Assembly: GCA_005809105.1 (NCBI GenBank)
Contig: SYLI01000018.1
Span: 195-64,194, forward strand
Reading direction: 5' to 3'
Length of the DNA stretch: 64,000 nt
From: Verrucomicrobiales bacterium
Lineage (GTDB): Bacteria > Verrucomicrobiota > Verrucomicrobiia > Limisphaerales > UBA1100
In this document: positions 10,905 to 49,161 of the stretch, in pieces
Position numbering within the stretch: position 1 is the stretch's first letter
Layout of the letters: each line of letters begins with the position of its first letter
Notes under the pieces: generated by a model
Databases searched by the model: none
Seen by the model: the letters and a program-made list of their open reading frames with translations, nothing else
Told to the model about the DNA's origin: nothing
Position numbers and translations under genes: made by a program

Positions 10905-10920
10905 TGTGAAAGAAATCACA
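10905..10920 (+). promoter_or_regulatory. Perfect CRP/FNR-family-type palindrome TGTGA-N6-TCACA upstream of actA
   Basis: Read directly: TGTGAAAGAAATCACA, 58 nt upstream of the actA ATG and 7 nt upstream of the candidate -35 hexamer. Confidence 0.45.
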
Positions 10921-10977: not shown

Positions 10978-11628
10978 ATGTCCAACATCTTTCCAAAATG
11001 GACCAACCGGCTGCCGCTTTTGGTGCTGGTGGGCGGGCTGCTACTGGGTGGCGGCGTGGTGACGGGGGTGACCTATTATTTTACGCCCAAGTACGCCAAC
11101 GTCGGCTACCAGCCGTTGCAGCCGGTTTCCTTCTCGCACAAGATTCACGCCGGGGAACTGGGCATGGACTGCCGCTACTGCCACAACGGCGTGGAGAAGT
11201 CGTGGTTCTCGAACGTGCCGGCGGCTTCGACTTGCATGAACTGCCACGGGGTGGTGCTCAAGGATGACCCGCGGCTGGCGCCGGTGCGCGAGAGCCACGA
11301 GAAGCACACGCCGCTGCCCTGGGTGCAGATCCACAAGACCCCGGACTACGTCTACTTCAACCACTCGGTGCACGTGAATCGCGGCATCTCCTGCGTGCAT
11401 TGCCACGGCAAGATCACGGAGATGGACGAGGTGCGGCATGAGAAGTCCTTGAGCATGGCCTTCTGCCTCGACTGCCACCGCAACACCCACGAGAAGATTC
11501 GCCCCTTGGAGCAGGTGTACAACCTGGACTGGAAGGGCGAGGGCTTCGCGCCTGAACGCGAGGGCCGCGCGCTGGCTGGCAAGCTGGGCGTGGAGGGCTC
11601 GCAGAGCTGCTCGGTCTGTCATCGATGA
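10978..11628 (+). CDS. actA: Alternative Complex III subunit ActA, pentahaem cytochrome c
   Basis: N-terminal TM helix plus five CxxCH motifs (CRYCH, CMNCH, CVHCH, CLDCH, CSVCH). First gene of the act cluster. Confidence 0.85.
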   Translation: MSNIFPKWTNRLPLLVLVGGLLLGGGVVTGVTYYFTPKYANVGYQPLQPVSFSHKIHAGELGMDCRYCHNGVEKSWFSNVPAASTCMNCHGVVLKDDPRLAPVRESHEKHTPLPWVQIHKTPDYVYFNHSVHVNRGISCVHCHGKITEMDEVRHEKSLSMAFCLDCHRNTHEKIRPLEQVYNLDWKGEGFAPEREGRALAGKLGVEGSQSCSVCHR

Positions 11629-14600
11629 GCGCACTCGATTCTCAAATGGAAGGCGCCCCGGGAGTGCAGTACTGGCGCGGTTTGCAGGCCCAGGGGCTGC
11701 TGCCCGAAAACGTGCCGCACACCGCCCTAGAATTCCCGAAGGATGCGGACCGGATGGATCCGGATTTTTCGCGCCGCGACTTCATGAAGTTGATGGGCGC
11801 CTCCTTTGGTCTGGCCGGTCTTGCTGGACTCGGGGTGGCGTGCCGGCGTCCGGTGGAGATGGTCGTGCCCTTTGGGCAACAGCCCGAAGGCTACACGCAC
11901 GGCGTCGCGCAGTATTTCGCCAGCGCCCGGCCCACGCGCACCGGCGCGGTGCCTCTCCTGGTGGAATCGAACGAAGGCCGGCCCACCAAGGTCGAGGGCA
12001 ACCCGGATTTCCCTGGTGGCAATGGCAGCACCGACCTGCATACGCAGGCGGCGATTCTCAATCTGTATGACCCCGACCGCGCGTCGGTCTTCCGGGGCGA
12101 GAAGGGTGAAACGCTGTCGCGGTCGGAGGCGCTTCAAAAATTGCGCACCGACGTCGTGCCGACGGCGCGCAACAACAACGGCGCGCACGTGGCGTTTTTG
12201 TTGGAGCCGGGCACATCGCCCACTCGCCTGCGGCTCCTGGCTCGCGTCAAGGAGACGCTCCCCGCCGCGAAATTCTACCAATGGGATCCGCTGGGTTTGG
12301 ACGTTTCTGCACGCGCGTCGGAAGCCGCATTTGGCAAGCCGGTGCGCCCTCACTACCACCTGGACCGGGCCGACGTGATTCTGTCGCTGGACTGCGATTT
12401 CATCGGTGGTGAGGAGGACTCGCACCGGCACATTCGCGATTTCGCCCGGGGGCGCAAGCTCAACACGACCACGGCGCGCAACATGTCGCGCCTCTACGTC
12501 GTGGAGCCGCTGATGACCCTCACCGGCGCCAGTGCCGACCATCGACTGCGCCTGCGTGCGGGCGACGTGGCCGGAGTCGCCGCGGCCCTCGCAGGGCGGC
12601 TGGGGTTGCCGGGGTTTGACGACAAACACCTTCCTTCCTCGGTGAAGGCCTCGTGGCTCGATCAATGCGCTGGCGACCTGCGCGGTGCATCCGGCAGGGT
12701 CGCGGTGCTGGCCGGGCACCGCCAGCCGGCCGCCGTGCATCAACTGGCGCAGGCGCTCAACGAAGCCCTCGGAGCCATCGGCGTTGAGGCCGATCACAAG
12801 CGGCCGGTGGAAATGCTTCCCGGCGTTCATCCAGCGGATGACTGGAAGGCGCCGGTGCACGGAGGCCTTGATGAACTGGTGAGCGAACTCAATGCCGGAA
12901 GGGTGCGCGAGCTTGTCATTCTTGGCGGCAATCCCGCCTACACCGCGCCGGCGGACTTGAACTGGGCCCAAGCCCAGGCCAGGGCCAAAACCGTCGTGCG
13001 GTTGGGCGATCATGCCGACGAATCCTCGCGCGGTTGCACGCTGCATCTGGGAAAAGCGCACTTTCTGGAATCGTGGGGCGACGCGCGAACCACCGACGGA
13101 ACTCTCGTGCCGGTGCAGCCGCTCATCCAGCCTTTGTTTGGCGGCTTGTCCGAGCTGGAGGTGCTTGCGGAATTTGCCGGTGTCAACCGTGCCGGCGCGC
13201 ACGAGCTGGTGCGCGAAACGTTCCGCGAGTTGACCGGCGCCGAGAACTTCGAGGATCGCTGGAAGCAGTTTCTCCATCAAGGCTTCTGGCCCGGAAGCGA
13301 ATCGCCGGTGGAGGCCGTCAAAGGTGCCAAGACCTCGCCTCTGGCGCCGGCGGGCGAGGGGCTTGAGGTGATTTTCACGCGTGATCACAGCGTGGAAGAC
13401 GGGCGTTATGCCAACAACGGCTGGCTGCAGGAGCTGCCCGATCCCATCACCAAGATCACTTGGGACAATGCCATTCTCGTGAGCCGCAAGACGGCCGAGG
13501 CTCAAGGCTGGCAGAACGGGTTGCGCCTTGCATTGACCGTGGGGCCGCGCTCGGTGGAGGGGCCGGTGTGGATCCAGCCCGGCCAGGCCGACGGCACGCT
13601 GGCGCTGGCGCTGGGGTATGGCCGCGATCCGAAGGCCTTCGGCGGGCGCATTGCCTGCTTTGGTGGCAAGGCCGTGGGTTTTAACGCCTACGCCATCCGC
13701 ACGGCGGGGCGCCTGCATTTTGATTCCGGCGCCAAGGCGGCACTGGCGCGCGGCACTCACAAGTTCTCCTGCACGCAGGATCACTGGTCGATGGAAGGTC
13801 GCGCGATTGTGCGCGAGGCCAATCTGGAGGGCGAATCCGGGTATGCCAAGAAGCCCGACTTCGCGCGGCAGATGGACTTGGACGCGCCCGAGCACGCGCG
13901 TCACACGATTGATCCCAAGACCGGCAAGCCCTATCAGATTTACGAGCACCCCTACAACGAGCGGCCCAAGCTCAAGAATGCGGCCGTCCAGTGGGGCATG
14001 TCGATTGACCTCAACTCCTGTGTCGGCTGCAACGCGTGCGTGGTTGCCTGTCAGAGCGAGAACAACATCCCCATCGTGGGCAAGGAGCAGGTGGGCAAGG
14101 GGCGTGAGATGCACTGGCTGCGCATCGACCGCTACTACACCGGGTTTGCCGGCGACCCCCACCACCGCGACACCGGGACGGATGCCGGGCAGTCGGCCCT
14201 TCATTGGATTGACGATCCGCAGGTGGTGCAGCAGCCCATGCTCTGCCAGCACTGCGAGTCGGCCCCGTGCGAAAGCGTCTGCCCCGTCAACGCCACCGTC
14301 CACGACGACGAGGGCTTGAACGTCATGGTGTACAACCGCTGCATCGGCACGCGGTACTGTTCCAACAACTGCGCATGGAAGGTGCGCCGGTTCAATTTCT
14401 TTGATTACAACAAGCGGCCGATCACCGCGCTCTACCAGGGGTTCCTCGCCAGCGTGGAGAAGGACGATCCCGGCGCGTGGGACGTGCTCAAGCTGGCGAA
14501 AAATCCGGACGTCACGGTGCGCATGCGCGGCGTCATGGAAAAATGCACCTACTGTGTGCAGCGCATCGAGCAGGCGAAGATCGCCCGCAAGCTCGCGGCC

Positions 14601-14999
14601 AGCCGTGAGTATCGCGACGCCGTGGCGCGTGATGGCAAGGGCCACGCGGTGGACGCGGTGGTGCCCGACGGGACTGTCCGGACGGCCTGCCAGCAGGCGT
14701 GCCCGGCGGAGGCAATCTCGTTTGGCAACATGGCCGATCCAGAGAGCCTCGTCTCGCAGTTGAAGCGGCTGCCCCGCAACTACGCGGTGCTGGGTTTCCT
14801 GGACACCAAGCCGCACACGACCTACCTGGCGCGCGTGCGCAATCCCAATCTCAAGGTGCCCGGCCCGTACGACGGCTACTACACCAAGCCGCTCAGCTCG
14901 CAGGACTACGACTCCAAGGCCGCGCATCCTGATGCGCATGGCACGCAGGGTGATCACGGCGCCGCGCCGGGGAGCCACAAAGAAGGAGGGCAGCCATGA
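11625..14999 (+). CDS. actB: Alternative Complex III subunit ActB (molybdopterin-oxidoreductase-like + Fe-S domains)
   Basis: Twin-arginine signal [10 protein letters not shown]. Large MopB-like N-terminal part. C-terminal ferredoxin-type clusters [44 protein letters not shown] overlap with actA. Confidence 0.9.
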
Positions 15000-16474
15000 G
15001 CGCGCACGCGCCCACGGATTCGTCGCCCGCGTACAGCACCACGACGCCGCCCGAATTGCAGCGGGTGCCGCTGGTGTTGGGGCAGCGGTCGCTGGGTTGG
15101 ATTTCCGATAAGATTTCCAGCATCGTCGAGGGCGACACCCCGCGTTGGTGGTGGTACGCGTTCATCCCCAGTTTCCTCATCGCGACGCTGGGCTTCGCGG
15201 CCATCGGCTACATGATCACGACGGGCATCGGCGTGTGGGGCCTCAACAACCCGGTCATGTGGGGCTGGGCGATCGTCAACTTCGTGTGGTGGATCGGCAT
15301 CGGCCACGCCGGCACGCTCATCTCGGCCATCCTCTTTCTGCTGCGGCAGAAATGGCGCACGTCCATCAACCGCGCTGCGGAGGCCATGACCATTTTTGCA
15401 GTGATGTGCGCGGGCATTTTCCCGGCCATTCACGTGGGACGCGTGTGGTATCTGTGGTATCCGCTGCCGATTCCCAATGGCAACGACATCTGGCCCCAGT
15501 TTCGTTCGCCTCTGTTGTGGGACGTGTTCGCGGTGTCTACCTACTTCACGGTGTCGCTGCTCTTCTGGTACATGGGATTGATCCCCGATCTGGCAACGCT
15601 GCGTGATCGGCTGAGGGTTCAGGCGCTGCGACTGACCGATCCAGCCGCGAAGTTCATCAACAAAGCCAAGCAGGCGCTTTATGGATTCTTCGCGCTGGGT
15701 TGGACAGGCTCCAACCGGCATTGGAGCCACTACGAGAAGATGTATTTGCTTTTGGCGGGGCTCTCCACGCCGCTGGTGTTGTCGGTCCACTCCATCGTGT
15801 CCTTCGACTTTGCCGTGTCGCAGGTTCCCGGATGGCATACCACGATCTTCCCGCCGTACTTTGTGGCGGGGGCGATCTTCAGTGGATTTGGCATGGTGCT
15901 GACGCTGATGATTCCAATGCGCAGCCTCTTCAAGCTGGAAGAGATCATCACCGAGCGCCACATCGAGCTGATGTGCAAGGTGACCCTGGCGACCGGCTCC
16001 ATCGTGGGCTACGCCTACGGGATGGAATTTTTCATCGCTTGGTACGGGGGCAGCCCCTACGAGCTCTACGCGTTCAAGAACCGCGCCTTTGGACCCTACT
16101 GGTGGGCCTACTGGATCATGGTGAGCTGCAACGTCATCAGCCCGCAGTTCTTCTGGTTCAAGAAAGTGCGCACCAACATGGTGGCGGTGTTTGTCCTCTC
16201 CATCTTTGTCAACATCGGCATGTGGTTTGAGCGCTTCGTGATTGTCGTGACGTCGCTGCACCGTGACTTCCTCCCCGCCAGCTGGGGCCATTACGGGCCG
16301 ACCTGGGTGGACGTGGTCACCTACGTGGGCACGATGGGCTTCTTCATGACGCTCTTCCTGCTCTTCATCCGGTTCCTGCCGCTGATCGCCATTTCCGAGG
16401 TGAAGGGGGTCACTCCGCAGGCCGATCCCCACCATGAACTGGGCGGCGCGACACGGGAAGGAGCCCGCGGATGA
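14996..16474 (+). CDS. actC: Alternative Complex III subunit ActC (NrfD/PsrC-like quinol-interacting membrane subunit)
   Basis: 492-aa polytopic membrane protein of NrfD type, directly after actB with an ATGA overlap. Confidence 0.9.
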
Positions 16475-17001
16475 GCCGCGCCCACGGCATTCTGGCGGAG
16501 TATCCGACGCCCGCGGCGGCGATGGCGGCGGCCGTGCGCGTGCGCGACGCAGGCTACTCGCGATGGGACGTGCACACGCCCTTTCCGGTCCACGGGATGG
16601 ACGAGGCGATGGGCCTCAAAAACTCGCCGGTGGGCTGGTTCACTTTTCTGGGCGGCTTGAGCGGCTACACGGGCGGCATGCTCATGATCTGGTTCATGAA
16701 CGCCTACCACTACGACATCGTGGTGGGCGGCAAGCCGCTCTTCAGCGGGTTTTATGCGTTCCCCGTCTGCTACGAGCTGACGATCCTACTCGGCGCCTTC
16801 GGCTCGATTCTGGGCATGCTCATCCTCAACCGGCTGCCGCGATGGCATCATCCGCTTTTGAGCAACCTGCGCTTTGCGCAAGTCACGCACGACAAGTTTT
16901 TCCTCGTCATCGAATGCGACGACGTGAAGTACGACGAAGCCCGCGCCCGCGCCCTCCTGCAAGCAGGCGCGGACCACATCGAGATGGTGGAGGACGACTA
17001 G
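16471..17001 (+). CDS. actD: Alternative Complex III subunit ActD
   Basis: 176 aa. N-terminal [10 protein letters not shown]....[16 protein letters not shown] signature followed by two TM helices. ATGA overlap with actC. Confidence 0.8.
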
Positions 17002-17002
17002 C

Positions 17003-17701
17003 ATGCGCCTCATTTTTGCAGGAATGGCGGTGTTGGTGCTGCTCGTGGTGGGGCTCTTGGGATTTCGGGGCAGCTCCTCTCGCAAGCCCCCGCTGGAAAT
17101 CTTTCCCGACATGGACCGCCAGCCCAAGCTGCGGCCCATGGAGCCCAACCGGTTTTTCCCCAACGGAATCAGCTCGCAGCCCACGCCCGAGGGGGCCGTG
17201 CCCCGCAGCCGCCCCGTGGTGGACCGTGAAGGCCGCAAGGTTTTCCCCTACCAGAATGACCATCCGGTCAACAGCGGGCGGGTCGCCGGCACCACCAACT
17301 ATCTGACTCTGTCGCCGCTGCCGGTATCGCGCGAAGTCGTCGCGCGCGGTCGCGAGCGTTACGCCATCAGCTGCGTGCCCTGCCACGGCGAACTGGGCGA
17401 CGGGCAGGGCATGGTCACCCGCATGGCCGTGGGCATGGCGGCTGCCAATCTGCATGATCCGGCCATCGTGCGCATGGCCGACGGCCAGCTTTACCGCACG
17501 CTGGCCTTTGGCAGCAAGGAAGGGCAGGGAGTGATGAAGGGTTACGCTTCGAACATCGACGTGGCCGACCGCTGGGCCATCGTGGCCTACCTGCGCGCCC
17601 TGCAGTCCTCGCGCCTTGCCAGCCTCGAGGAATTGAAGAGCTTGGAGAAGGCTCAGCCGGGCACCGTGCCCGCCGCGCTCTTGCAGCCCAAATCGAATTG
17701 A
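17003..17701 (+). CDS. actE: Alternative Complex III subunit ActE, monohaem cytochrome c
   Basis: N-terminal TM anchor, single CVPCH haem motif, and a downstream Met-containing segment. Starts 1 nt after the actD stop. Confidence 0.8.
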   Translation: MRLIFAGMAVLVLLVVGLLGFRGSSSRKPPLEIFPDMDRQPKLRPMEPNRFFPNGISSQPTPEGAVPRSRPVVDREGRKVFPYQNDHPVNSGRVAGTTNYLTLSPLPVSREVVARGRERYAISCVPCHGELGDGQGMVTRMAVGMAAANLHDPAIVRMADGQLYRTLAFGSKEGQGVMKGYASNIDVADRWAIVAYLRALQSSRLASLEELKSLEKAQPGTVPAALLQPKSN

Positions 17702-17703
17702 CG

Positions 17704-18891
17704 ATGAGCGCCCACGCCACTGCCGCCGCGCACGCCCACGCCGAGGATCATGTCCCGACGATGTGGGAGCGCCTTCCTTGGATGGCGGCGGCGCTGGGCT
17801 TTTTGGGTTGTCTGGCCGGCTACGTGTTCGAGGGGCCCAAGAATTTTGCGCACGCGTATCTCGTTGCGTTCATGTTTTTCCTGAGCCTCGGGTTGGGCGC
17901 GTTCTTCCTCGTGGTGATTCACCACCTCTTTGATGCGTACTGGTCGGTGCCCACCCGTCGGTTTCTGGAACACCTGGCCTGTCTGCTCCCGTGGATGGCG
18001 CTGTTCTTCCTGCCCATCGGTCTCTTGAGCGGCGACCTTTACTACTGGATGAACGTGGATCCTGCAAAGGATCACTCGCTGGCCGTCAAGCAGGTGCTCT
18101 TTAACAAGGCCACTTGGGGCGTGGCCAGTGCAGCCCTCTTCGGGATCTGGTGGCTGTGGACGCACCGGCTGCGCGGCTGGTCGCTGCGCCAAGACGAGAC
18201 GGGCGCGGCCGAGTGCACGACTGCCATGCGCCGCTGGGCGGCCTCGGGCATCTTCGTGTTCGCCTTTTCGCTCACGGCCGCGGCGATTTTCTGGATGAAG
18301 TCGCTGGAGCACCAGTTCTTCTCCACCATGTACGGCGTGTACTACTTTGCGGGGAGCGTGTGGATGACGCTGGCCACGGCCTACGCCATCGCGCTGCTGT
18401 TGCGGCGTTCAGGGCGTGTGCCGATGATGGGCCAGGAACAATTCCACAGCCTCGCCAAGCTGCTCTTCGCCTTCACAGTGTTTTACGCGTACATCCACTT
18501 CTCGCAGTACTTCCTCATCTGGAACGCCGCCATGCCGGAGGAAACCTTCTGGTACGCCAAACGCGAGCAGGGCACCTGGGCCATCGTGGGCTGGGTGATC
18601 ATCCTCGGCCACTTTGTGCTGCCCTTCCTGGTGCTGCTGCGCATCGATGCCAAGCTCAGCACCAAGGTCGTCATTCCTATTTTCGTCTGGGTGTGGCTGA
18701 TGCACCATCTGGATCTCCAGTTTAACATCATGCCACTGGTGCAGCCCGAGGGCCCGGCCTTCCTGATTTCCACCTTGGGTGCGCTGCTGTTCATCGGTGG
18801 CCTGCTCGCTGCGCTGTTCCTCTGGGACCTGCGCCGGCATCCGGCCTTCCCGTTAAAGGATCCGCGCATGGGAGAGGTGGTCCGCCACTGA
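17704..18891 (+). CDS. actF: Alternative Complex III subunit ActF (second NrfD-like membrane subunit)
   Basis: Polytopic membrane protein related to ActC. ATG 17704 lies 2 nt after the actE stop; the ORF-track start at 17698 is a TTG. Confidence 0.8.
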   Translation: MSAHATAAAHAHAEDHVPTMWERLPWMAAALGFLGCLAGYVFEGPKNFAHAYLVAFMFFLSLGLGAFFLVVIHHLFDAYWSVPTRRFLEHLACLLPWMALFFLPIGLLSGDLYYWMNVDPAKDHSLAVKQVLFNKATWGVASAALFGIWWLWTHRLRGWSLRQDETGAAECTTAMRRWAASGIFVFAFSLTAAAIFWMKSLEHQFFSTMYGVYYFAGSVWMTLATAYAIALLLRRSGRVPMMGQEQFHSLAKLLFAFTVFYAYIHFSQYFLIWNAAMPEETFWYAKREQGTWAIVGWVIILGHFVLPFLVLLRIDAKLSTKVVIPIFVWVWLMHHLDLQFNIMPLVQPEGPAFLISTLGALLFIGGLLAALFLWDLRRHPAFPLKDPRMGEVVRH

Positions 18892-18892
18892 C

Positions 18893-19276
18893 ATGAGCAA
18901 TCCCGGCACCCATTCCAATCATCGCGGCTGGCAGGCCTACGAAGTGGCGGCCGTATTGCTCGTGGTGCTCCTGGCCGTGTGGGTTTGGGGCCGCGCGCTT
19001 GAAGGATCGCGTGGCGAGGCGCCGGGCACGGCGCGCGCCAAGGAGCGTCAGGACAAGCTCACGCAAAGCCGCGAGCAGGCGCGTCAGGAACTGGAAAGCT
19101 TTGGCGCTCTGGATGGCCAGCGCTTCCGCATTCCCGTCAGCAGGGCGATGCAAGAGGCCGCCGATGCGATGGCCAAGGATCCGGCCGCCTTCCGCTCCGA
19201 CCTGCTCCAACGTCTTCCGCCTGCGCCAGAGACCCCCGCGGCACCGGTGGCACCGGCGGGCAACCAGAGCAACTGA
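18893..19276 (+). CDS. Small single-TM protein in the ActG position (hypothetical)
   Basis: 127 aa with one TM helix (AAVLLVVLLAVWVW) and a charged/Pro-Ala-rich tail. Starts 1 nt after the actF stop and ends 3 nt before the next gene. Confidence 0.5.
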   Translation: MSNPGTHSNHRGWQAYEVAAVLLVVLLAVWVWGRALEGSRGEAPGTARAKERQDKLTQSREQARQELESFGALDGQRFRIPVSRAMQEAADAMAKDPAAFRSDLLQRLPPAPETPAAPVAPAGNQSN

Positions 19277-19279
19277 TTC

Positions 19280-20731
19280 ATGAGCTGCCACGCCTCAACC
19301 CACGCGCACGCCTGCGGCCCCGCGACGCCAGAAACCGTGGACGCCTCGTGCCGTGGCGCCGTGCTGCTGCTGTTGGGCAGCGCGCTCGGCTGGCTGGTGC
19401 TCTCCACGCTGGCGCAGGTGCTGGCCTCGCTCAATTTCCATTCTCCTTCGCTGCTGGCGGGTTGCTCATTTCTGAGCTACGGACACCTCCAGTCGCTGGC
19501 GGGCACGGCGTTCATCTTCGGATTTGGCGGTAACGCGGCCTTCGGAATTTCCCTGTGGCTCTTGGCGCGCCTGCGCCAGACGGGATTGAGGCTTCCCGTC
19601 TCGGCGATTCTGGGAGGCATGGTCTGGAATGTGGGAGTCACTGCGGGCGCGCTGGGCATTCTGCAGGGTGATGCCAGCGGCTACGAAGGCATCGAACTGC
19701 CGCTCTACGCGCTGCGCCTGGTGATTGCCGGAGGCGCGATGATCGCGCTTTGCGCCGTGCTCACCTACCTGGCTCGATCACAGGAGGAATTGTACCCCAG
19801 TCTTTGGTATGTGCTGGCGGGGTTGGTGGTGTTGCCTGCGGCATTGGCGACGGTCTATCTGGCGCTTGGGGATGACCCGGTGCGCGGCGTGGCGCAAGCC
19901 AGCACAAGCTGGTGGGCGGCGTCGGCGCTGCGGGTGCTCTGGCTGGGTTCGATGGCTCTGGCGGCGGTGTTTTATTTCGTGCCCAAGCTGGTGGGAACAC
20001 CGCTCTACAGCAGGCAGCTGGCTGGATTTGGATTCTGGGGACTGCTCTTGCTGGGCGGCTGGGTCGGCGTTCCCGCCGAGGCGCCCGTGCCGGCATGGAT
20101 GACCCGGATGGGTGCCTTTGCATGTGTCCTCATGATCTTCCCGCTGTTCGCGGTGGTGTGGAACGTCCACCGCACCATTGGCGCCAATGCCGTGATGATG
20201 TCGCAGGATCTGACCCTTTCCTATCTTGGATTTGCACTGCTGTGCTTTCTGCTCTCAGGCTTGGCCGGCGTGTTGCAGCCCGTGCACGCGCACACCACGC
20301 AGTTCACGCTTTTCCCCGTGGCGGTGAAGCACCTTTGGAGCTTCGGTTTTGTCGTTATGACCGTACTGGGGGCCTGTGTTTACATGACGCCCCGGCTCGT
20401 CGGCCGCGACTGGGCAGGTGCCGGATGTCTTCGTTCCAATTTCAAGGTGGCCACGGCGGGGGTGCTGCTGCTGGTGATTCCGCAGCTCTTGGGCGGCTGG
20501 ATGCAGGGGCAGGGTTTGAATGACGCGGCGCAGGCGTACTCCAACCTACCGGCCAAGGCGCTCATGGCGCTGCGCGCGGCGTTCTTGGGCGAACTGCTCT
20601 TGCTGGTGGCCGCACTCATGGCTTTGAGCAATTTTCTCCGGCTGTTGGGCCCCGCGTGTTGCGGAGGCTGCTGCCCGCTGGAGTTTTTCCGCATGATCCG
20701 GCAATCCAAGAACACGCGGGGTGCTGCATGA
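19280..20731 (+). CDS. cbb3-type cytochrome oxidase subunit I (CcoN) homologue with a degenerate metal-ligand set
   Basis: 12-TM-type protein with clear CcoN-like blocks (FIFGFGGNA, FYFVPK..PLYS, VPAW). By my by-eye alignment it lacks the CuB and haem b3 histidines (see findings). Confidence 0.75.
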   Translation: MSCHASTHAHACGPATPETVDASCRGAVLLLLGSALGWLVLSTLAQVLASLNFHSPSLLAGCSFLSYGHLQSLAGTAFIFGFGGNAAFGISLWLLARLRQTGLRLPVSAILGGMVWNVGVTAGALGILQGDASGYEGIELPLYALRLVIAGGAMIALCAVLTYLARSQEELYPSLWYVLAGLVVLPAALATVYLALGDDPVRGVAQASTSWWAASALRVLWLGSMALAAVFYFVPKLVGTPLYSRQLAGFGFWGLLLLGGWVGVPAEAPVPAWMTRMGAFACVLMIFPLFAVVWNVHRTIGANAVMMSQDLTLSYLGFALLCFLLSGLAGVLQPVHAHTTQFTLFPVAVKHLWSFGFVVMTVLGACVYMTPRLVGRDWAGAGCLRSNFKVATAGVLLLVIPQLLGGWMQGQGLNDAAQAYSNLPAKALMALRAAFLGELLLLVAALMALSNFLRLLGPACCGGCCPLEFFRMIRQSKNTRGAA

Positions 20732-21879
20732 ACCGCGTGCCCCTGCTCATCGCCTGCATCTTGCTCGCGCTGGCGCCGGCGTGGTTCTCGCTCGTGCGGA
20801 TCGCCGCCCGGCAACAGTCCAGTCTGGCGCCGCATACCCGCGGCGAGTCGATCTATCCGCAGGACCGCGTTGGCCAGGCCAAGATGGGCCGCGAGGCTTA
20901 CCGCGCCAATGGCTGTTACCATTGCCACAGTCAGCAGGTGCAGCAGGGTGCCGTCGTCTACAATCTGTTCCTGACGGGTTCGGGCGCCAATCGCGAGGGG
21001 TTGCTTTCCGCAATGGGTCGCCGCGTGGAGGCCGCCAATGCCACCGGCAATCAGGTGCAAACCAAATCGTGGTCGGCCGCGAGGGATGCAGGCGCGTTGC
21101 ACACGGCGCTCTTTCTTAACACCGATGATTTCAAGACGCTGGACGAAGCCAGACTGGCGCAACGGCCGGAGGCCGGGGTTGCTCTGAAGCTCGAAGCGTC
21201 GGCGCGATTGGAGGCGCTCAGTTTGGCGGCGCTGGCCGACAAGAACGAGATTGCGCGTGCGCGCCGACTGCTCAAGCTGCCGCAAGAGGAGAATTCGACC
21301 GCGCCCGTCAAAGCCGACAAGCCGGGCTTATTCCTTGCTGGACCGGTGGGCTGGACTGAGGCCCGGGCGGCCGTTGCGGCGTTAAAAAACGCTGGGGGCG
21401 TTGTGCTCATGCAGCCCGAACTCGCGCCCGTGGCCCAAGGCCAGCCGGTGGGCGACACGGTGGCGCATGGCGGCTCCACCGCGTGGGGTCAGCGCCGCAG
21501 CGTTGGCCGCGACTATCTGTTTGAAACTCCCCTCATGCTTGGCTCGCAGCGCATCGGGCCCGATCTGGCGCATCTGGGCGGCCGGTGGAAGGGCGACGCA
21601 TGGCATTACCAGCATCTCTATAATCCCCGCGCCCAGGGAGTGGGCCATCCAAAGTCAGTGATGCCCCCCTACCGATTCCTGTTCACCCGCAGGGCGGGAG
21701 CCAAAATGTCAGAGGCGGAGATGGCGCAGGGCGGCTTTGTGTCGGGCAACGAAGTGGTGCTTCCAAAGCCGGAGGCGCGCGCCTTGGTGGCCTATCTTCG
21801 CAGTCTGGAGCAGCCTGATCTGTTGCCGGAGGCGCCTGCGCCCAAGTCTCGCGCGGCAGTCCTTCGCCCCAATCCATGA
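20728..21879 (+). CDS. cbb3 oxidase subunit II (CcoO)-like monohaem cytochrome c with a large insertion
   Basis: N-terminal TM helix, CYHCHSQ haem motif, and CcoO-like blocks GSQRIGPDLAHLGGRW, WHYQHLYNPR, SVMPPYRFLF. ATGA overlap with the upstream gene. Confidence 0.75.
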   Translation: MNRVPLLIACILLALAPAWFSLVRIAARQQSSLAPHTRGESIYPQDRVGQAKMGREAYRANGCYHCHSQQVQQGAVVYNLFLTGSGANREGLLSAMGRRVEAANATGNQVQTKSWSAARDAGALHTALFLNTDDFKTLDEARLAQRPEAGVALKLEASARLEALSLAALADKNEIARARRLLKLPQEENSTAPVKADKPGLFLAGPVGWTEARAAVAALKNAGGVVLMQPELAPVAQGQPVGDTVAHGGSTAWGQRRSVGRDYLFETPLMLGSQRIGPDLAHLGGRWKGDAWHYQHLYNPRAQGVGHPKSVMPPYRFLFTRRAGAKMSEAEMAQGGFVSGNEVVLPKPEARALVAYLRSLEQPDLLPEAPAPKSRAAVLRPNP

Positions 21880-22505
21880 GCGCACCTCAAGTCCACAAGC
21901 CCCAGCCGGATTCACCGGAGCCCACGGCAGCCGTGGCGCCGATGTCCGTGGCGGTGTTCGTTGCGCTGGCGGTGGTGCTCCATGCGGGCATGACCAGGGT
22001 GGACCGCGCGGCGGGCGCCTTCTCGCCACTGGTGTACGCGCCCTATTCGTCCGAAGAGGAATGGCAGGCGATGGCGGCACGGTCGCCCCTGGAGCTTCAG
22101 CAGGAACGTGGCGCGGCGATTTTCAAGGGCAAGGGCGGCTGCATGGGCTGCCATCAGGCGGGTGGCGAAGGTTCCACGGGTCAGAACACGCCGCCGCTGG
22201 CGGGGTCGGAATGGGTGCTCGCCGACAAGCCCGACCGCATCGTACGCATCGTGCTGCACGGGCTGAGCGGCCCGGTGAGCGTGAAGGATCGCGTGTGGAC
22301 GGGAGGCACGATGCCGCCGGTGGGAGCCAATCTGTCCGAGGAGGAGATTGCCGATGTGCTCACGTACATTCGCAGCGCCTGGGGCAACGCGGCCCGGCCT
22401 GTGGACGTGAAATCCGTAAAACTGATTCGCGACGCCGTGGGCTCCCGCGCCAAACCCTGGACGGCGCCGGAACTGGAAGCCGTGCCCGTCAGCGCGGGCA
22501 AGTGA
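21876..22505 (+). CDS. Membrane-anchored monohaem c-type cytochrome
   Basis: TM helix (VAVFVALAVVL), CMGCH haem motif, MPP distal Met region, and C-terminal LTYIRSAWGN typical of class I cytochromes c. ATGA overlap with the upstream gene. Confidence 0.75.
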   Translation: MSAPQVHKPQPDSPEPTAAVAPMSVAVFVALAVVLHAGMTRVDRAAGAFSPLVYAPYSSEEEWQAMAARSPLELQQERGAAIFKGKGGCMGCHQAGGEGSTGQNTPPLAGSEWVLADKPDRIVRIVLHGLSGPVSVKDRVWTGGTMPPVGANLSEEEIADVLTYIRSAWGNAARPVDVKSVKLIRDAVGSRAKPWTAPELEAVPVSAGK

Positions 22506-22562: not shown

Positions 22563-23918
22563 ATGAAGGCTGCATCGCTCCTTTCTCTCCTGCTCCTTTG
22601 GCTGCCGCTTGACGCCGCCCCATTCCGCGTCGCGCCCTTCAGCGCCGACGTCACCGTGCCCATGGGGCATGGCATGATGGGCGGCCTGTGGAAATCCAAA
22701 TCCGTGGCCGACCCCTTGCTGGCGCGCGGCATCGTTCTCCTGGGCGGCGACAAGCCGGTGGTGTTTGTTTCGGTGGACTGGTGCGAAATCCGCAACGCGG
22801 CGTTTGACCGCTGGCGTCTGGTGCTGGCCGAGGCTGCGGGCACCGATCCCCTGCGCGTGATGGTCAGCTGCATCCATCAGCACGACGCGCCCGTGGCTGA
22901 TCTTGAGGCGCAGCGCATGCTTGAGGAGCGCAAGCTGGCCGGCAGCATCTGCGACCTTGAATTCCATGAGAAGGCCGTGCGCGCCGTGGCAGCGGCGGTG
23001 CGAGAGGCCATGAAAACGCCGCGCCTCGTCACGCATGTGGGGCTGGGCCAGGCGAAGGTCGACCGCGTGGCCTCCAACCGCCGATACGTGCTGCCCGACG
23101 GCAAATTTTCATTCGGACGCGGCAGCGCCAGTGGCAAGAACGTGCTCGCGGCCGGGGCGCCCGAAGGCACGGTCGATCCGTGGCTCAAGACGCTCAGCTT
23201 CTGGGACGGCACCAACGCCATCGCCGCGCTGAGCGGCTACGCAACCCATCCCATGAGCTACTACCGCACGGGCGATGTTTCGGCAGACTTCCCCGGCGAT
23301 GCCCGCGCGCGGCGCCAGAAGGAAACGCCCGGCTGCCTGCAGGTATATTTTTCAGGCGCCAGCGGCAACGTCACTGCAGGTAAATACAATGACGGCGCCC
23401 GGACCAACCGCGCCGTGCTAGCGGGCCGCCTGCACGACGCCATGACGCGCGCATGGAAGGAGACACAGCGGCAACCCCTCCAGCGCGTTGACTTCCGCAG
23501 CACCACGGTGCGGCTGGAACCGCGGAACCATGCCGGATTTACCGTGGAGGATCTCAGGGGCAAACTCAAACCCGGCATCGACCCATTTCAACAATGTCTC
23601 GCGGCCATGGGGCTGAGCTGGCGTGCGCGCGCCGATGCCGGCCACAAGATTGACGTGCCGGTGCTGGATTTTGGGCCGGCCCAATTGCTGTTGCTGCCCG
23701 GAGAGAGCTATGTGGAATACCAGCTCGCCGCCCAGCAGATGCGCCCCGACTCGTTCGTGCTGGTCGCCGGTTACGGCGAATGCGCGACCGGCTACGTGCC
23801 CACCGAGAAGCACTGGGAGGAGGGCGACGGCAATCTGGGCGACTGGTGCTGGGTGCATCCCGGCGCGGAAAAACCGCTCTTGGATGCCATCCGCAGAGTG
23901 CTGGTGCCGGTGAAATGA
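22563..23918 (+). CDS. Secreted hypothetical protein, distant ceramidase-like fold (tentative)
   Basis: Signal peptide (MKAASLLSLLLLWLPLDAAP). SCIHQHDAP motif in a position analogous to NASHCHG of CDS 945..2477. Starts 57 nt after the respiratory operon, on the same strand. Confidence 0.45.
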   Translation: MKAASLLSLLLLWLPLDAAPFRVAPFSADVTVPMGHGMMGGLWKSKSVADPLLARGIVLLGGDKPVVFVSVDWCEIRNAAFDRWRLVLAEAAGTDPLRVMVSCIHQHDAPVADLEAQRMLEERKLAGSICDLEFHEKAVRAVAAAVREAMKTPRLVTHVGLGQAKVDRVASNRRYVLPDGKFSFGRGSASGKNVLAAGAPEGTVDPWLKTLSFWDGTNAIAALSGYATHPMSYYRTGDVSADFPGDARARRQKETPGCLQVYFSGASGNVTAGKYNDGARTNRAVLAGRLHDAMTRAWKETQRQPLQRVDFRSTTVRLEPRNHAGFTVEDLRGKLKPGIDPFQQCLAAMGLSWRARADAGHKIDVPVLDFGPAQLLLLPGESYVEYQLAAQQMRPDSFVLVAGYGECATGYVPTEKHWEEGDGNLGDWCWVHPGAEKPLLDAIRRVLVPVK

Positions 23919-47104: not shown

Positions 47105-48121
47105 TCAGTGCGGCAGCAGCTCGATGCCGCATCCGGGCGCGTCGGGAAAATGGAACCGGCCATCCTCCACGCGGACGCCGGTGGCGGCGTCTGCGGCCAG
47201 CAACGCGGCCCCATCCAGATCCACGAAGTCCACGAGCGGCGCCATCTGGGCCGCGGCGGAGATGCCGACGGTTGACTCGGTCATGCAGCCCACCATCACG
47301 CGAAGCCCCAGCGCGCGCGCCTTGGCCACCATGCGCCGCGCCGGCGTCAACCCACCGCACTTGCAGAGCTTGATATTGATGCCGTGGAACCGGCCGGCGC
47401 AGGCTTCCACATCGGCCTCGCCCACGCAGCTTTCATCGGCGATGAGGGGCAGCGCGGACTCGGCAAACACGCGTTCCTGCGCGGTGCTGTTGGGCGGCAG
47501 GGGCTGCTCGATAAATTCCACTCCCAGCCCGGCCAGCGCGAGGGAGAGGCTCACCGCCTCCTCCTCCGACCATCCGCAGTTGGCGTCCACCCGCAGGCGC
47601 GCGGTCGTCTGTGCCCGAAGGGCGCGCACCGCCTCCAGATCGTTCGCCGTGCCGACCTTGACCTTGTACACCGGCCAGTGCGGGCGCTCGAGCAGCTTGG
47701 CCACCATGACCTCGACCGTGTCGATGCCGATGGTGTAGGACGACGCGGGCGCCGCCGCAGGGTCCAGCCCCCAGAGCCGGTGCACGCTCTGGTTTTGCTG
47801 CCGGCCCCAGAGGTCGTGCGCGGCGCAGTCGAGCGCGCTTTGCGCAAAGGGATGCGCGGCAAGCCACGGTGCCGTGGCCTCAAAAAGCAAGTGGGGATGG
47901 GTGAACGCGTGTGACTCGACCGCTTCCCGGGCGGATTCAAGCGCGGCGCGCACGCGATTAAGCGTCGCGTCGTAGTAGTCGTTTAACGGAGCCTCGCCGA
48001 AGCCGGAGTGGCCGCCCTCCCGCAGCTCGACGATGAGGGAGTGCTGCTCGGTGATCGACTCGCGCGCGATGGTGAAGGGATGCGCCAGGGGAAGCCGGTA
48101 CTCGTGCAGAAGCAGTTTCAT
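47105..48121 (-). CDS. Dipeptide epimerase-type enolase-superfamily enzyme (L-Ala-D/L-Glu epimerase-like)
   Basis: YKVKVG (KxK), VDANCGW, FIEQP, IADES, NIKLCKCGG (second catalytic Lys), DLDG. Start at ATG 48121, overlapping the upstream gene stop (ATGA). Confidence 0.8.
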   Translation of the reverse strand: MKLLLHEYRLPLAHPFTIARESITEQHSLIVELREGGHSGFGEAPLNDYYDATLNRVRAALESAREAVESHAFTHPHLLFEATAPWLAAHPFAQSALDCAAHDLWGRQQNQSVHRLWGLDPAAAPASSYTIGIDTVEVMVAKLLERPHWPVYKVKVGTANDLEAVRALRAQTTARLRVDANCGWSEEEAVSLSLALAGLGVEFIEQPLPPNSTAQERVFAESALPLIADESCVGEADVEACAGRFHGINIKLCKCGGLTPARRMVAKARALGLRVMVGCMTESTVGISAAAQMAPLVDFVDLDGAALLAADAATGVRVEDGRFHFPDAPGCGIELLPH

Positions 48122-49161
48122 GGCGTGCGAAGCAGTGCACGCACCGCCTCCACCAGTGGCGCGGCGCCGTCGCGGAAGATGTCGCAGGCCGGCAGGTTCA
48201 ACTCGCGCTCGACGCGCGCACGCTCGTCGCGATACTCCGCGTCGCCCACGCGGCGGCTGTTGATGGCCACGCCAATAAACCGGCAGGGGTGCGCCACGTT
48301 GGCGGTCGTGTGATAGAGCTGGATCAGCCGGTCCAGCGGCAGCAGCGGCACGTGGTTCAGGCCGTTGACATGGGTGCGGCCCATTTCGTAGCAAAGGATG
48401 AGCGCGTGCGGGGCGCAGCCGTGCAAGAGCCCCATCGTCACGGCGGAGTAGGCCGGGTGCGCGAGGCTGCCCTGACCTTCGACGACCACCACGGCGTGGT
48501 GCTGGTGAGCAAGCACGAGCTTTTCGACCGCGCCGTTGACAAAGTCGGAAACGACGGCGTCAACGGGGCAGCCGTGGCCCTCGATGAGGATGCCCGTCTG
48601 GCCGGTGGCGAGAAACTTGGCGTCCACGCCCAGCGCCTCAAGGCCGCGCGTCACCTCGATGGCGGCGACCATCTTTCCCACGCAGCAATCGTTGCCGACG
48701 GTGTGGACGCGCAGACACTTCTCGCGGAATCGGTCGCGACGCGCCACGTCTTGCTCGACGTTGCGTCGCAAGTCCACCAGTCGCACACCCTTGCGGCTGG
48801 CGGCAGCCGCAAATTCAGGGTCGTCACCGAGAAACTCGTGCAATCCGCTCTGCACTTCCATGCCGCGTTCAATGGCGCCGAGCACCGCCGCGCGCATGGG
48901 CCCGGGCAGTCGCCCGCCCTGTGGGGCGATGCCGATGAGCAGGGTGTCGGCCCCCGGCGGGGCGTCAGCGAGCGCGCGAATCACGGGGATGGCGCCGCCC
49001 ACTTGAAAGAGTTGCTGGGTGGTCTGCGGAGCGATGGTGGAATCAAGCACCGCCACCACTTCATCTGCGCGATAGCGGATGACGCTGACGGCCGTCTTGG
49101 CGTTGATGGGGTTGGACAACCCCTCGGTGAGGATGAGGATTTTGCGCTTGCGGCTCGTCAT
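48118..49161 (-). CDS. DUF1611 family protein (DgcN-like putative N-acetyltransferase)
   Basis: N-terminus ILTEG.....AKTA...IRY....VVAVLDS and the overall layout of DUF1611. Translationally coupled to the epimerase. Confidence 0.7.
   Translation of the reverse strand: MTSRKRKILILTEGLSNPINAKTAVSVIRYRADEVVAVLDSTIAPQTTQQLFQVGGAIPVIRALADAPPGADTLLIGIAPQGGRLPGPMRAAVLGAIERGMEVQSGLHEFLGDDPEFAAAASRKGVRLVDLRRNVEQDVARRDRFREKCLRVHTVGNDCCVGKMVAAIEVTRGLEALGVDAKFLATGQTGILIEGHGCPVDAVVSDFVNGAVEKLVLAHQHHAVVVVEGQGSLAHPAYSAVTMGLLHGCAPHALILCYEMGRTHVNGLNHVPLLPLDRLIQLYHTTANVAHPCRFIGVAINSRRVGDAEYRDERARVERELNLPACDIFRDGAAPLVEAVRALLRTP

Follow-up and report, generated by a model that had tools for sequence, protein, structure and literature searches.

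A ten-gene alternative complex III unit with a ligand-less CcoN-like protein in a Pedosphaera-like verrucomicrobium

Alternative complex III (ACIII) is known from Rhodothermus marinus, Flavobacterium johnsoniae, Roseiflexus and Chloroflexus (6F0K, 6BTM, 6LOD, 8K9E), and an oxidase gene cluster usually follows the act genes (PMC5928083). ACIII genes adjoining those of a C-type oxidase have already been documented for Verrucomicrobia (PMC8498564), and ACIII-cbb3 clusters of verrucomicrobial methanotrophs and Opitutaceae are cited in that paper (Refojo et al. 2010). The cbb3 oxidase CcoNOP itself is known from Pseudomonas stutzeri (3MK7, 5DJQ) and Rhodobacter capsulatus (6XKW). In the ACIII-aa3 supercomplex of F. 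johnsoniae and in the bc1-cbb3 and CIII2CIV supercomplexes (8SMR, 6XKW), membrane-anchored c-haems wire an oxidoreductase to its acceptor with no soluble carrier. The present analysis deals with a stretch of 64,000 nucleotides from contig SYLI01000018.1 of a Verrucomicrobiales bacterium (assembly GCA_005809105.1), hereafter called the window. At positions 10978-22505, on the + strand, it carries ten consecutive open reading frames (ORFs) that encode an ACIII and, after it, a cbb3-like module whose CcoN-like protein lacks the ligands of haem b, haem b3 and CuB.

The window shares the subunit set and the gene order of the known ACIIIs, and here too an oxidase-type cluster follows the act genes. 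Unlike in the known ACIII loci with a caa3 or aa3 partner, this cluster is derived from the C family and its catalytic subunit has no cofactor ligands. The clusters of the verrucomicrobial methanotrophs and Opitutaceae have the same architecture, act genes followed by ccoN, ccoO and a cytochrome c gene, and the combination of ACIII with a C-type oxidase is itself known and not new. Compared to these canonical verrucomicrobial clusters, the window and 13 other sampled genomes lack the CcoN ligands as well as ccoS. No description of a ligand-less CcoN was found in the literature searched, a search that had most subscription journals outside its scope, and as far as this literature shows a cofactor-less oxidase with correlated loss of ccoS is undescribed. 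With a probability of roughly 0.6, this Pedosphaera-like verrucomicrobium combines ACIII with a disarmed cbb3 oxidase that does not reduce O2 but is retained to extend ACIII, as a scaffold free of cofactors and as an electron relay.

Gene order and the ligand-less CcoN-like protein

An earlier note on this DNA had counted twelve genes in the unit, while ORF and junction analysis gives ten. The same note had pointed out that the cbb3-like genes might be adjacent to the act genes by accident only. This was checked among related Verrucomicrobiota, gathered by whole-genome protein search and by single-protein scan, and the order act genes, small transmembrane (TM) protein, ccoN, ccoO and cytochrome c was found in 34 of 34 loci. 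These are the loci with enough flanking sequence: 19 from class-level genomes (~15 GTDB families), 11 from named metagenome-assembled genomes (MAGs) and 4 more. As the order is kept in all of them, the adjacency of act and cco genes is ancestral and not accidental. Among named relatives, a Pedosphaera sp. MAG from Lake Baikal is the closest, with a CcoN-like protein 71% identical to that of the window and a locus that contains the same ten genes plus the next gene. When 301 genomes of the phylum were searched at the protein level, 68 genomes of the same class had one copy each.

The CcoN-like protein (19280..20731, + strand) has 483 amino acids and matches PF00115 with 112 bits, while its score of 92.7 bits for NCBIfam TIGR00780 (ccoN) lies below the equivalog cut-off of 583.15. 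Its AlphaFold2 model (predicted local distance difference test, pLDDT, 87.3; predicted TM-score, pTM, 0.88) found CcoN chains as top matches in Foldseek, with a TM-score of 0.85-0.88 and a root mean square deviation of 2.3 Å for 3mk7_A. By this model the protein keeps the 12-helix CcoN fold, which it shares with the P. stutzeri and R. capsulatus enzymes, and ligand-less CcoN retains the structural Trp, Gly, Pro and Arg residues. The earlier suspicion that the partner module is cbb3-like agrees with the profile, the PDB alignment and the fold matches. Identity as a nitric oxide reductase (NOR) of the cNOR (NorB) type was considered and rejected, as the six ligand columns are empty and NOR structures rank below CcoN, with a TM-score of 0.75.

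To read the ligand columns, the protein was aligned to the CcoN chains of 3mk7 and 6xkw as well as to 94 relatives. The six His columns (two for haem b, one for haem b3, three for CuB) hold A, S, P, a gap, V and H in the window and S, S, H, a gap, L and D in the closest relative, while canonical relatives read HHHHHH. The helix-2 haem b ligand H60 is replaced by A74, the WWxxH motif of helix 6 has become WWAAS215, helix 7 has lost its HH pair, after P265, and the HxH motif of helix 10 reads V349/K350/H351. The helix-7 Tyr that forms the cross-link to a CuB His is present in 100% of canonical sequences but is Gly in 80% of the ligand-less ones, among which the window (G259). Further His residues that are otherwise invariant have gone as well. 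The family alignment revealed no substitute conserved His, Met or Cys in the transmembrane core of ligand-less CcoN. The distribution is bimodal: 34 sequences have all six His residues, 61 have two or fewer, and none lies between. Both the PDB and the family alignments therefore uphold the earlier description of subunit I as atypical. Compared to CcoNOP, the window is without the ligands of haem b, haem b3 and CuB, without the cross-link Tyr and without CcoS.

Two features of the wider family were observed besides. Four loci from two genomes (L007, L008, L036 and L068; genomes G300 and G048) have an intermediate CcoN with the pattern H-N-Q-R-Y-H, in which the two haem b ligands are kept and those of haem b3 and CuB are gone; ccoS is absent there, and this form may, to judge from its residues, still bind one haem. 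The CcoN-like protein of the window furthermore ends in a Cys-rich tail, GPACCGGCCP (20648..20677, + strand), at its predicted cytoplasmic C-terminus, where the pLDDT is low. Tails of this CCxxCC type recur in the subclade of the window (P0002, P0003, P0005, P0007, P0015, P0022) and were found in none of the canonical CcoN sequences. Metal binding and acylation are possibilities for such a tail.

Loss of ccoS, selection and the number of conversions

FixS, the product of ccoS, is a maturation protein of cbb3 oxidases. Sequence was available for 42 genomes of the class, 28 canonical and 14 ligand-less, a sample that was ranked by similarity to the window and is not random. An ORF of 65-90 amino acids resembling FixS (PF03597) lies just 5' of ccoN in all 31 canonical clusters with upstream sequence and in no ligand-less cluster. 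Pfam searches of whole genomes for FixS were positive in 11 of 11 canonical genomes and negative in 13 of 14 ligand-less ones. In the genome of the window, a six-frame search with a clade-specific hidden Markov model and with PF03597 found no ccoS/FixS. The loss of ccoS together with the ligands independently supports the absence of haem b and copper from these proteins. The exception among the ligand-less genomes, G150, has a FixS-like match of 23.6 bits (C73:5017-5142) on a contig other than that of its act cluster, which may be a remnant or part of another oxidase locus.

The ligand-less ORFs are intact (459-540 amino acids) in all 61 sequences, down to ~30% identity. The ratio of nonsynonymous to synonymous substitution rates (dN/dS) of the CcoN-like gene is 0.16 between the window and its closest relative, L053, for which actB and actE gave 0.145. 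Other ligand-less pairs gave 0.079 (L058/L059, dS 0.58) and 0.18 (L060/L063, dS 0.28); a pair from genus g29 (L066/L067), saturated at synonymous sites, was kept outside this set. Selection on ligand-less CcoN is purifying but relaxed.

The ligands were lost repeatedly. Most ligand-less sequences form one clade in the CcoN tree (56 rows; Shimodaira-Hasegawa-like approximate likelihood ratio test, SH-aLRT, 96); the tree clearly sets apart further losses in L018, which sits inside a canonical family, in the pair L007/L008 and in P0054. The two members of genus g29 are both ligand-less within an otherwise canonical family. The trees of ActC, the CcoO-like protein and cytochrome c interleave ligand-less with canonical clusters (canonical L039 falls within L033/L035/L038, canonical L051 with L045/L046) and need three to five changes. 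A single ancient ligand-less clade was considered; the CcoN tree mostly agrees with it, but the trees of the neighbouring genes do not. Approximately unbiased (AU) tests on the CcoN data rejected the groupings of the neighbouring genes weakly or not at all (p 0.034 and 0.225). On these phylogenies, no fewer than three independent conversions to ligand-less CcoN are secure. Two explanations of the conflict between the trees are convergent decay with long-branch attraction in the CcoN tree, and exchange of ccoN alone between clusters.

ACIII, the partner cytochromes and the rest of the respiratory chain

Pfam, models of the QrcA/B/C type and structural matches of ActF indicate that the act genes, recognised as such before, are a bona fide ACIII set; all lie on the + strand. 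The product of actA (10978..11628) is a pentahaem cytochrome c with an N-terminal hydrophobic TM helix and five CxxCH motifs. It matches Pfam Cytochrome_C7/c3, is QrcA-like, and is 49-60% identical and syntenic in all relatives. ActB (11625..14999) is a fusion of a molybdopterin-like (B1) and a 4Fe-4S (B2) subunit, QrcB-like at residues 109-493 and QrcC-like at the C-terminus, with Fer4_7/8/11 at residues 790-925; its N-terminus matches a variant signal model for twin-arginine translocation (Tat) and carries the motif SRRDFMK. ActC (14996..16474) is a quinol-binding membrane subunit of the NrfD/PsrC type (PF03916, E 6e-25), with 60-68% identity in relatives and a dN/dS of 0.084 against L053. 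ActD (16471..17001) is the two-helix subunit specific for ACIII (PF11821, E 5e-60) and the only ActD of the genome, which carries one act cluster only. ActE (17003..17701) is a monohaem cytochrome c with an N-terminal TM helix and one CxxCH motif (CVPCH; Pfam Cytochrom_C / Cytochrome_CBB3). The second NrfD-like membrane subunit, ActF (17704..18891 from an ATG, with an alternative TTG start at 17698), has no Pfam match but matches the solved ActF chains 6f0k_F (E 1.6e-52), 6lod_F and 8k9e_F. The set thus has what is typical for known ACIII: a pentahaem ActA, a fused ActB exported by Tat, two NrfD/PsrC-like subunits, ActD and a monohaem ActE, in the order actABCDEF, with a small single-TM, ActG-like protein after them. 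The latter (18893..19276) has 127 amino acids, a single helix and a conserved periplasmic motif ('...VRIPI..AMEL'), a dN/dS of 0.24 and a homologous ORF at the same place in nearly all relatives. The top PDB match of its profile, a weak one, is ActG (8k9e_G, E 0.008), the protein expected at this place.

Translation of the CcoO-like protein (20728..21879, + strand) starts at the ATG at 20728 and not at the GTG at 20656 further upstream, as the alignment of its N-terminus with relatives begins at M1. The protein has an N-terminal TM helix, a CYHCH motif at residue 63 and the Met-ligand context SVMPPY, and its residues 53-72 and 258-331 align to CcoO residues 58-77 and 90-159. It is, like CcoO, a monohaem cytochrome c with CxxCH and a Met ligand, with an additional insert of ~185 residues (about 20944-21498); the spacing from the haem motif to GPDL is 214 in the window and 45 in most relatives. 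The insert was identified via Pfam matches in relatives; the AlphaFold model of the CcoO-like protein is poor (pLDDT 50, pTM 0.33). Three relatives (L055, L056, L059) have an insert of ~73 residues between haem motif and core, at residues ~80-146, which matches the C-terminal domain of Ribosomal_L12 (PF00542) above cut-off with 29-33 bits. The fold is that of a ribosomal protein, here within a periplasmic cytochrome. The insert of ~185 residues in the window and L053 appears to consist of the two PF00542-type halves, split by an extra helical segment of ~100 residues.

The last gene (21876..22505, + strand) encodes a class I (c552-like) cytochrome c with a single haem and a membrane anchor, which takes the position of CcoP. 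It has one CxxCH motif (CMGCH) and a partial match to ccoP (TIGR00782, E 1e-11) over one haem domain only. Its top PDB matches are the cytochrome c domain of Cu-nitrite reductases (NirK, 5e-17), Thermus thermophilus c552 (2e-12) and CcoP (7e-10). That the module has a single-haem cytochrome of its own was therefore rightly noted before. The claim that CcoP is lacking stands in so far as there is no dihaem CcoP, but the slot of CcoP is filled, in canonical clusters too, by a protein with a partial ccoP match. The haem c tally given earlier was reproduced by CxxCH counts: five in ActA and one each in ActE, the CcoO-like protein and the last cytochrome, eight c-haems in total across the ten genes. 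Wherever a CcoO-like or cytochrome c ORF is intact in the fetched loci, it retains CxxCH, in ligand-less clusters too. The window thus shares with CcoNOP the haem motif, core and Met-ligand context of CcoO and a third, membrane-anchored cytochrome c. It differs in that this cytochrome is monohaem and c552-like instead of a dihaem CcoP and in the large domain inserted in the CcoO-like protein.

No other oxidase was found in the window, which agrees with the earlier remark that it holds no functional terminal oxidase. The genome (3.0 Mb, 96% complete) encodes just one further haem-copper oxidase, of the A type and on contig C9, in a cluster of ctaB, coxI, coxIII, coxIV, a CuA-type coxII without CxxCH, and SCO. 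A genome search found no bd oxidase, and by gene content the C9 aa3 enzyme is the only predicted O2 reductase of the genome. Its CoxIII (C9:45518-46738) has ~400 amino acids with a long hydrophilic insertion between TM segments; the product of coxII (47650-49014) has 454 amino acids and a large N-terminal extension, without a cytochrome c domain. In six relatives (L042, L045, L046, L048, L049, L051) coxII/coxI genes lie directly 3' of the cytochrome c gene, and their products are 45-63% identical to the C9 enzyme. These large clusters of act, cbb3(-like) and aa3 genes occur in canonical and ligand-less lineages alike. Their gene order places the cbb3(-like) module between ACIII and the aa3 oxidase.

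Proposed role and alternative explanations

The unit would descend from an ancestral verrucomicrobial ACIII-cbb3 'superoperon'. Its first seven genes would form a complete ACIII (ActABCDEF plus the ActG-like protein), predicted to oxidize menaquinol and to pass the electrons via the Fe-S clusters of ActB to a haem wire in ActA and ActE. The last three genes would encode a disarmed cbb3 oxidase, with a CcoN-like protein predicted to be unable to bind haem b, haem b3 and CuB; since the genome has no CcoS/FixS either, no O2 reduction is expected of it. It would serve as a membrane scaffold that holds the CcoO-like protein and the anchored c552-like cytochrome beside ACIII, which would be the reason for its retention. 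Their haems would extend the ACIII wire to eight c-haems, from which electrons may be handed on to the C9 aa3 oxidase, without a cytochrome c domain of its own, or to other periplasmic acceptors. The idea is the same as in the described supercomplexes, but in the putative complex proposed here an oxidase shell without catalytic activity would stand in the middle. A wider version, in which the oxidase turned into a cofactor-free scaffold several times within the Verrucomicrobiae, each time with loss of ccoS and with both c cytochromes kept, and in which the shell bridges ACIII and aa3 in a three-part ACIII / pseudo-cbb3 / aa3 assembly, is put forward tentatively and may well be wrong.

Several observations weigh against a scaffold and relay role. 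H351 of the window aligns with the second helix-10 ligand, although the closest relative has Asp there, and non-His ligation of a cofactor is still conceivable from the residues present. Ligand-less CcoN has a dN/dS of 0.08-0.23 compared to 0.01-0.06 in canonical CcoN and so evolves faster; part of its sequence may simply be relaxed. The association of the three proteins with ACIII is deduced from gene order only. Moreover, C16:1805-4274 (- strand) encodes a Rieske-like Tat protein followed by a cytochrome b of 583 amino acids fused to a dihaem cytochrome c, which gives the genome a second way from quinol to cytochrome c besides ACIII.

Alternatively, the CcoN-like protein has been repurposed in a non-redox role, as a proton or ion pathway coupled to ACIII or as a sensor or regulator, with the cytochromes secondary. 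The whole 12-helix bundle is kept, with conserved polar residues (R97, Q206, K236, N295, Q409), and proton pumping by ACIII is itself debated (PMC8498564, PMC5928083). However, no channel residues were mapped in the CcoN-like protein, both c-haem partners are strictly retained along with it, which points towards electron transfer, and no precedent was found in the literature searched; such a role is considered unlikely.

It is still somewhat less likely that the cco-like genes are a functionless, decaying remnant that persists only through its place within an essential operon and its translational coupling to this operon. The faster evolution of the ligand-less genes, with long branches in the tree, and the lack of conservation of the residues at the ligand sites would fit decay. 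On the other hand, the reading frames are intact throughout, dN/dS is far below 1, the structural residues are conserved and neither partner cytochrome has lost its haem motif in any cluster. The insert in the CcoO-like protein and the Cys-rich tail are new, lineage-specific additions, which also speaks against a remnant.

The overlaps of the ATGA type reported earlier at 11625, 14996, 16471, 20728 and 21876 are all present, as are the short gaps, of 1 nt (17001/17003), 2 nt (17701/17704), 1 nt (18891/18893) and 3 nt (19276/19280). In many relatives the ccoN/ccoO and ccoO/cytochrome c junctions are likewise 4-nt overlaps. This packing suggests a single mRNA with stoichiometric co-synthesis of the ten gene products. 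Inside the unit no sigma-70-like promoter turned up in a consensus scan, although such a scan has little power in a verrucomicrobium, as promoters of this phylum are poorly known. Weak, short terminator-like hairpins occur within coding sequence (25, compared to 14.6 ± 4.5 in shuffled sequences) and at none of the gene junctions of the unit. In the 179-nt gap before actA, at 10905..10920 (+ strand), a CRP/FNR-type palindrome, TGTGAAAGAAATCACA, was found. It is a perfect TGTGA-N6-TCACA palindrome 73 nt before actA, and no other one occurs in the window. The same box precedes actA in L053 (-74), L048 (-37) and L049 (-54), and since these clusters are from different families it is unlikely to be there by chance. 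The palindrome is a candidate operator for what would be the single promoter region of the operon. The alternative, two neighbouring operons in which act and cco-like genes are expressed apart from an internal promoter, is improbable to about the same degree as a remnant. It is favoured by the actF-to-ccoN interval of relatives, 200-900 nt with one or two small genes, and by the weakness of the promoter test. In the window, however, the gaps over this interval are only 1 and 3 nt, which leaves no space for a classical intergenic promoter; moreover, the scan saw no promoter-like site within the unit, and the one conserved CRP-type box lies before actA.

A still working cbb3-type or NOR-type reductase with non-canonical or migrated ligands is very improbable: the CcoN fold, the CcoO-like haem c as natural electron entry and the purifying selection on the genes would suit it, but in place of the six His residues and the Tyr there are residues that differ from relative to relative (A/S/Q/N/G), with a two-residue deletion at the HH site, no other conserved His, Met or Cys is found in the TM core, CcoS is absent here and in nearly all ligand-less genomes while present in all the canonical genomes searched, and the ccoN equivalog score is far below its cut-off.

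Genome surveys infer microaerobic capacity from 'ccoN' matches. In the genome of the window and in about a third of the sampled relatives, such a match appears to be a protein unable to bind haem or copper, and the only O2 reductase predicted for the organism is an aa3 enzyme of the low-affinity type. If the wider version, with repeated conversion to a scaffold, is correct, many Verrucomicrobiota of soil and freshwater would carry genes counted as a 'high-affinity cbb3 oxidase' whose products do not reduce oxygen. The module would offer a natural example of a respiratory enzyme that persists as a pseudo-enzyme scaffold, tied to ACIII by gene order. It makes testable what subunit I contributes beyond catalysis, such as anchoring of CcoO, formation of supercomplexes or an ion path, and the correlated loss of CcoS may serve as a genomic marker that tells live from dead ACIII-linked cbb3 modules.

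Downstream of the unit, 57 nt past the last cytochrome gene, a gene on the same strand (22563-23918) encodes a secreted-looking protein of 451 amino acids. The 57 nt contain no terminator-like site. The protein has no Pfam match and the gene is kept in place only in L053, and it was rejected as a member of the conserved unit; the L053 copy is 82% identical, with a dN/dS of 0.17.

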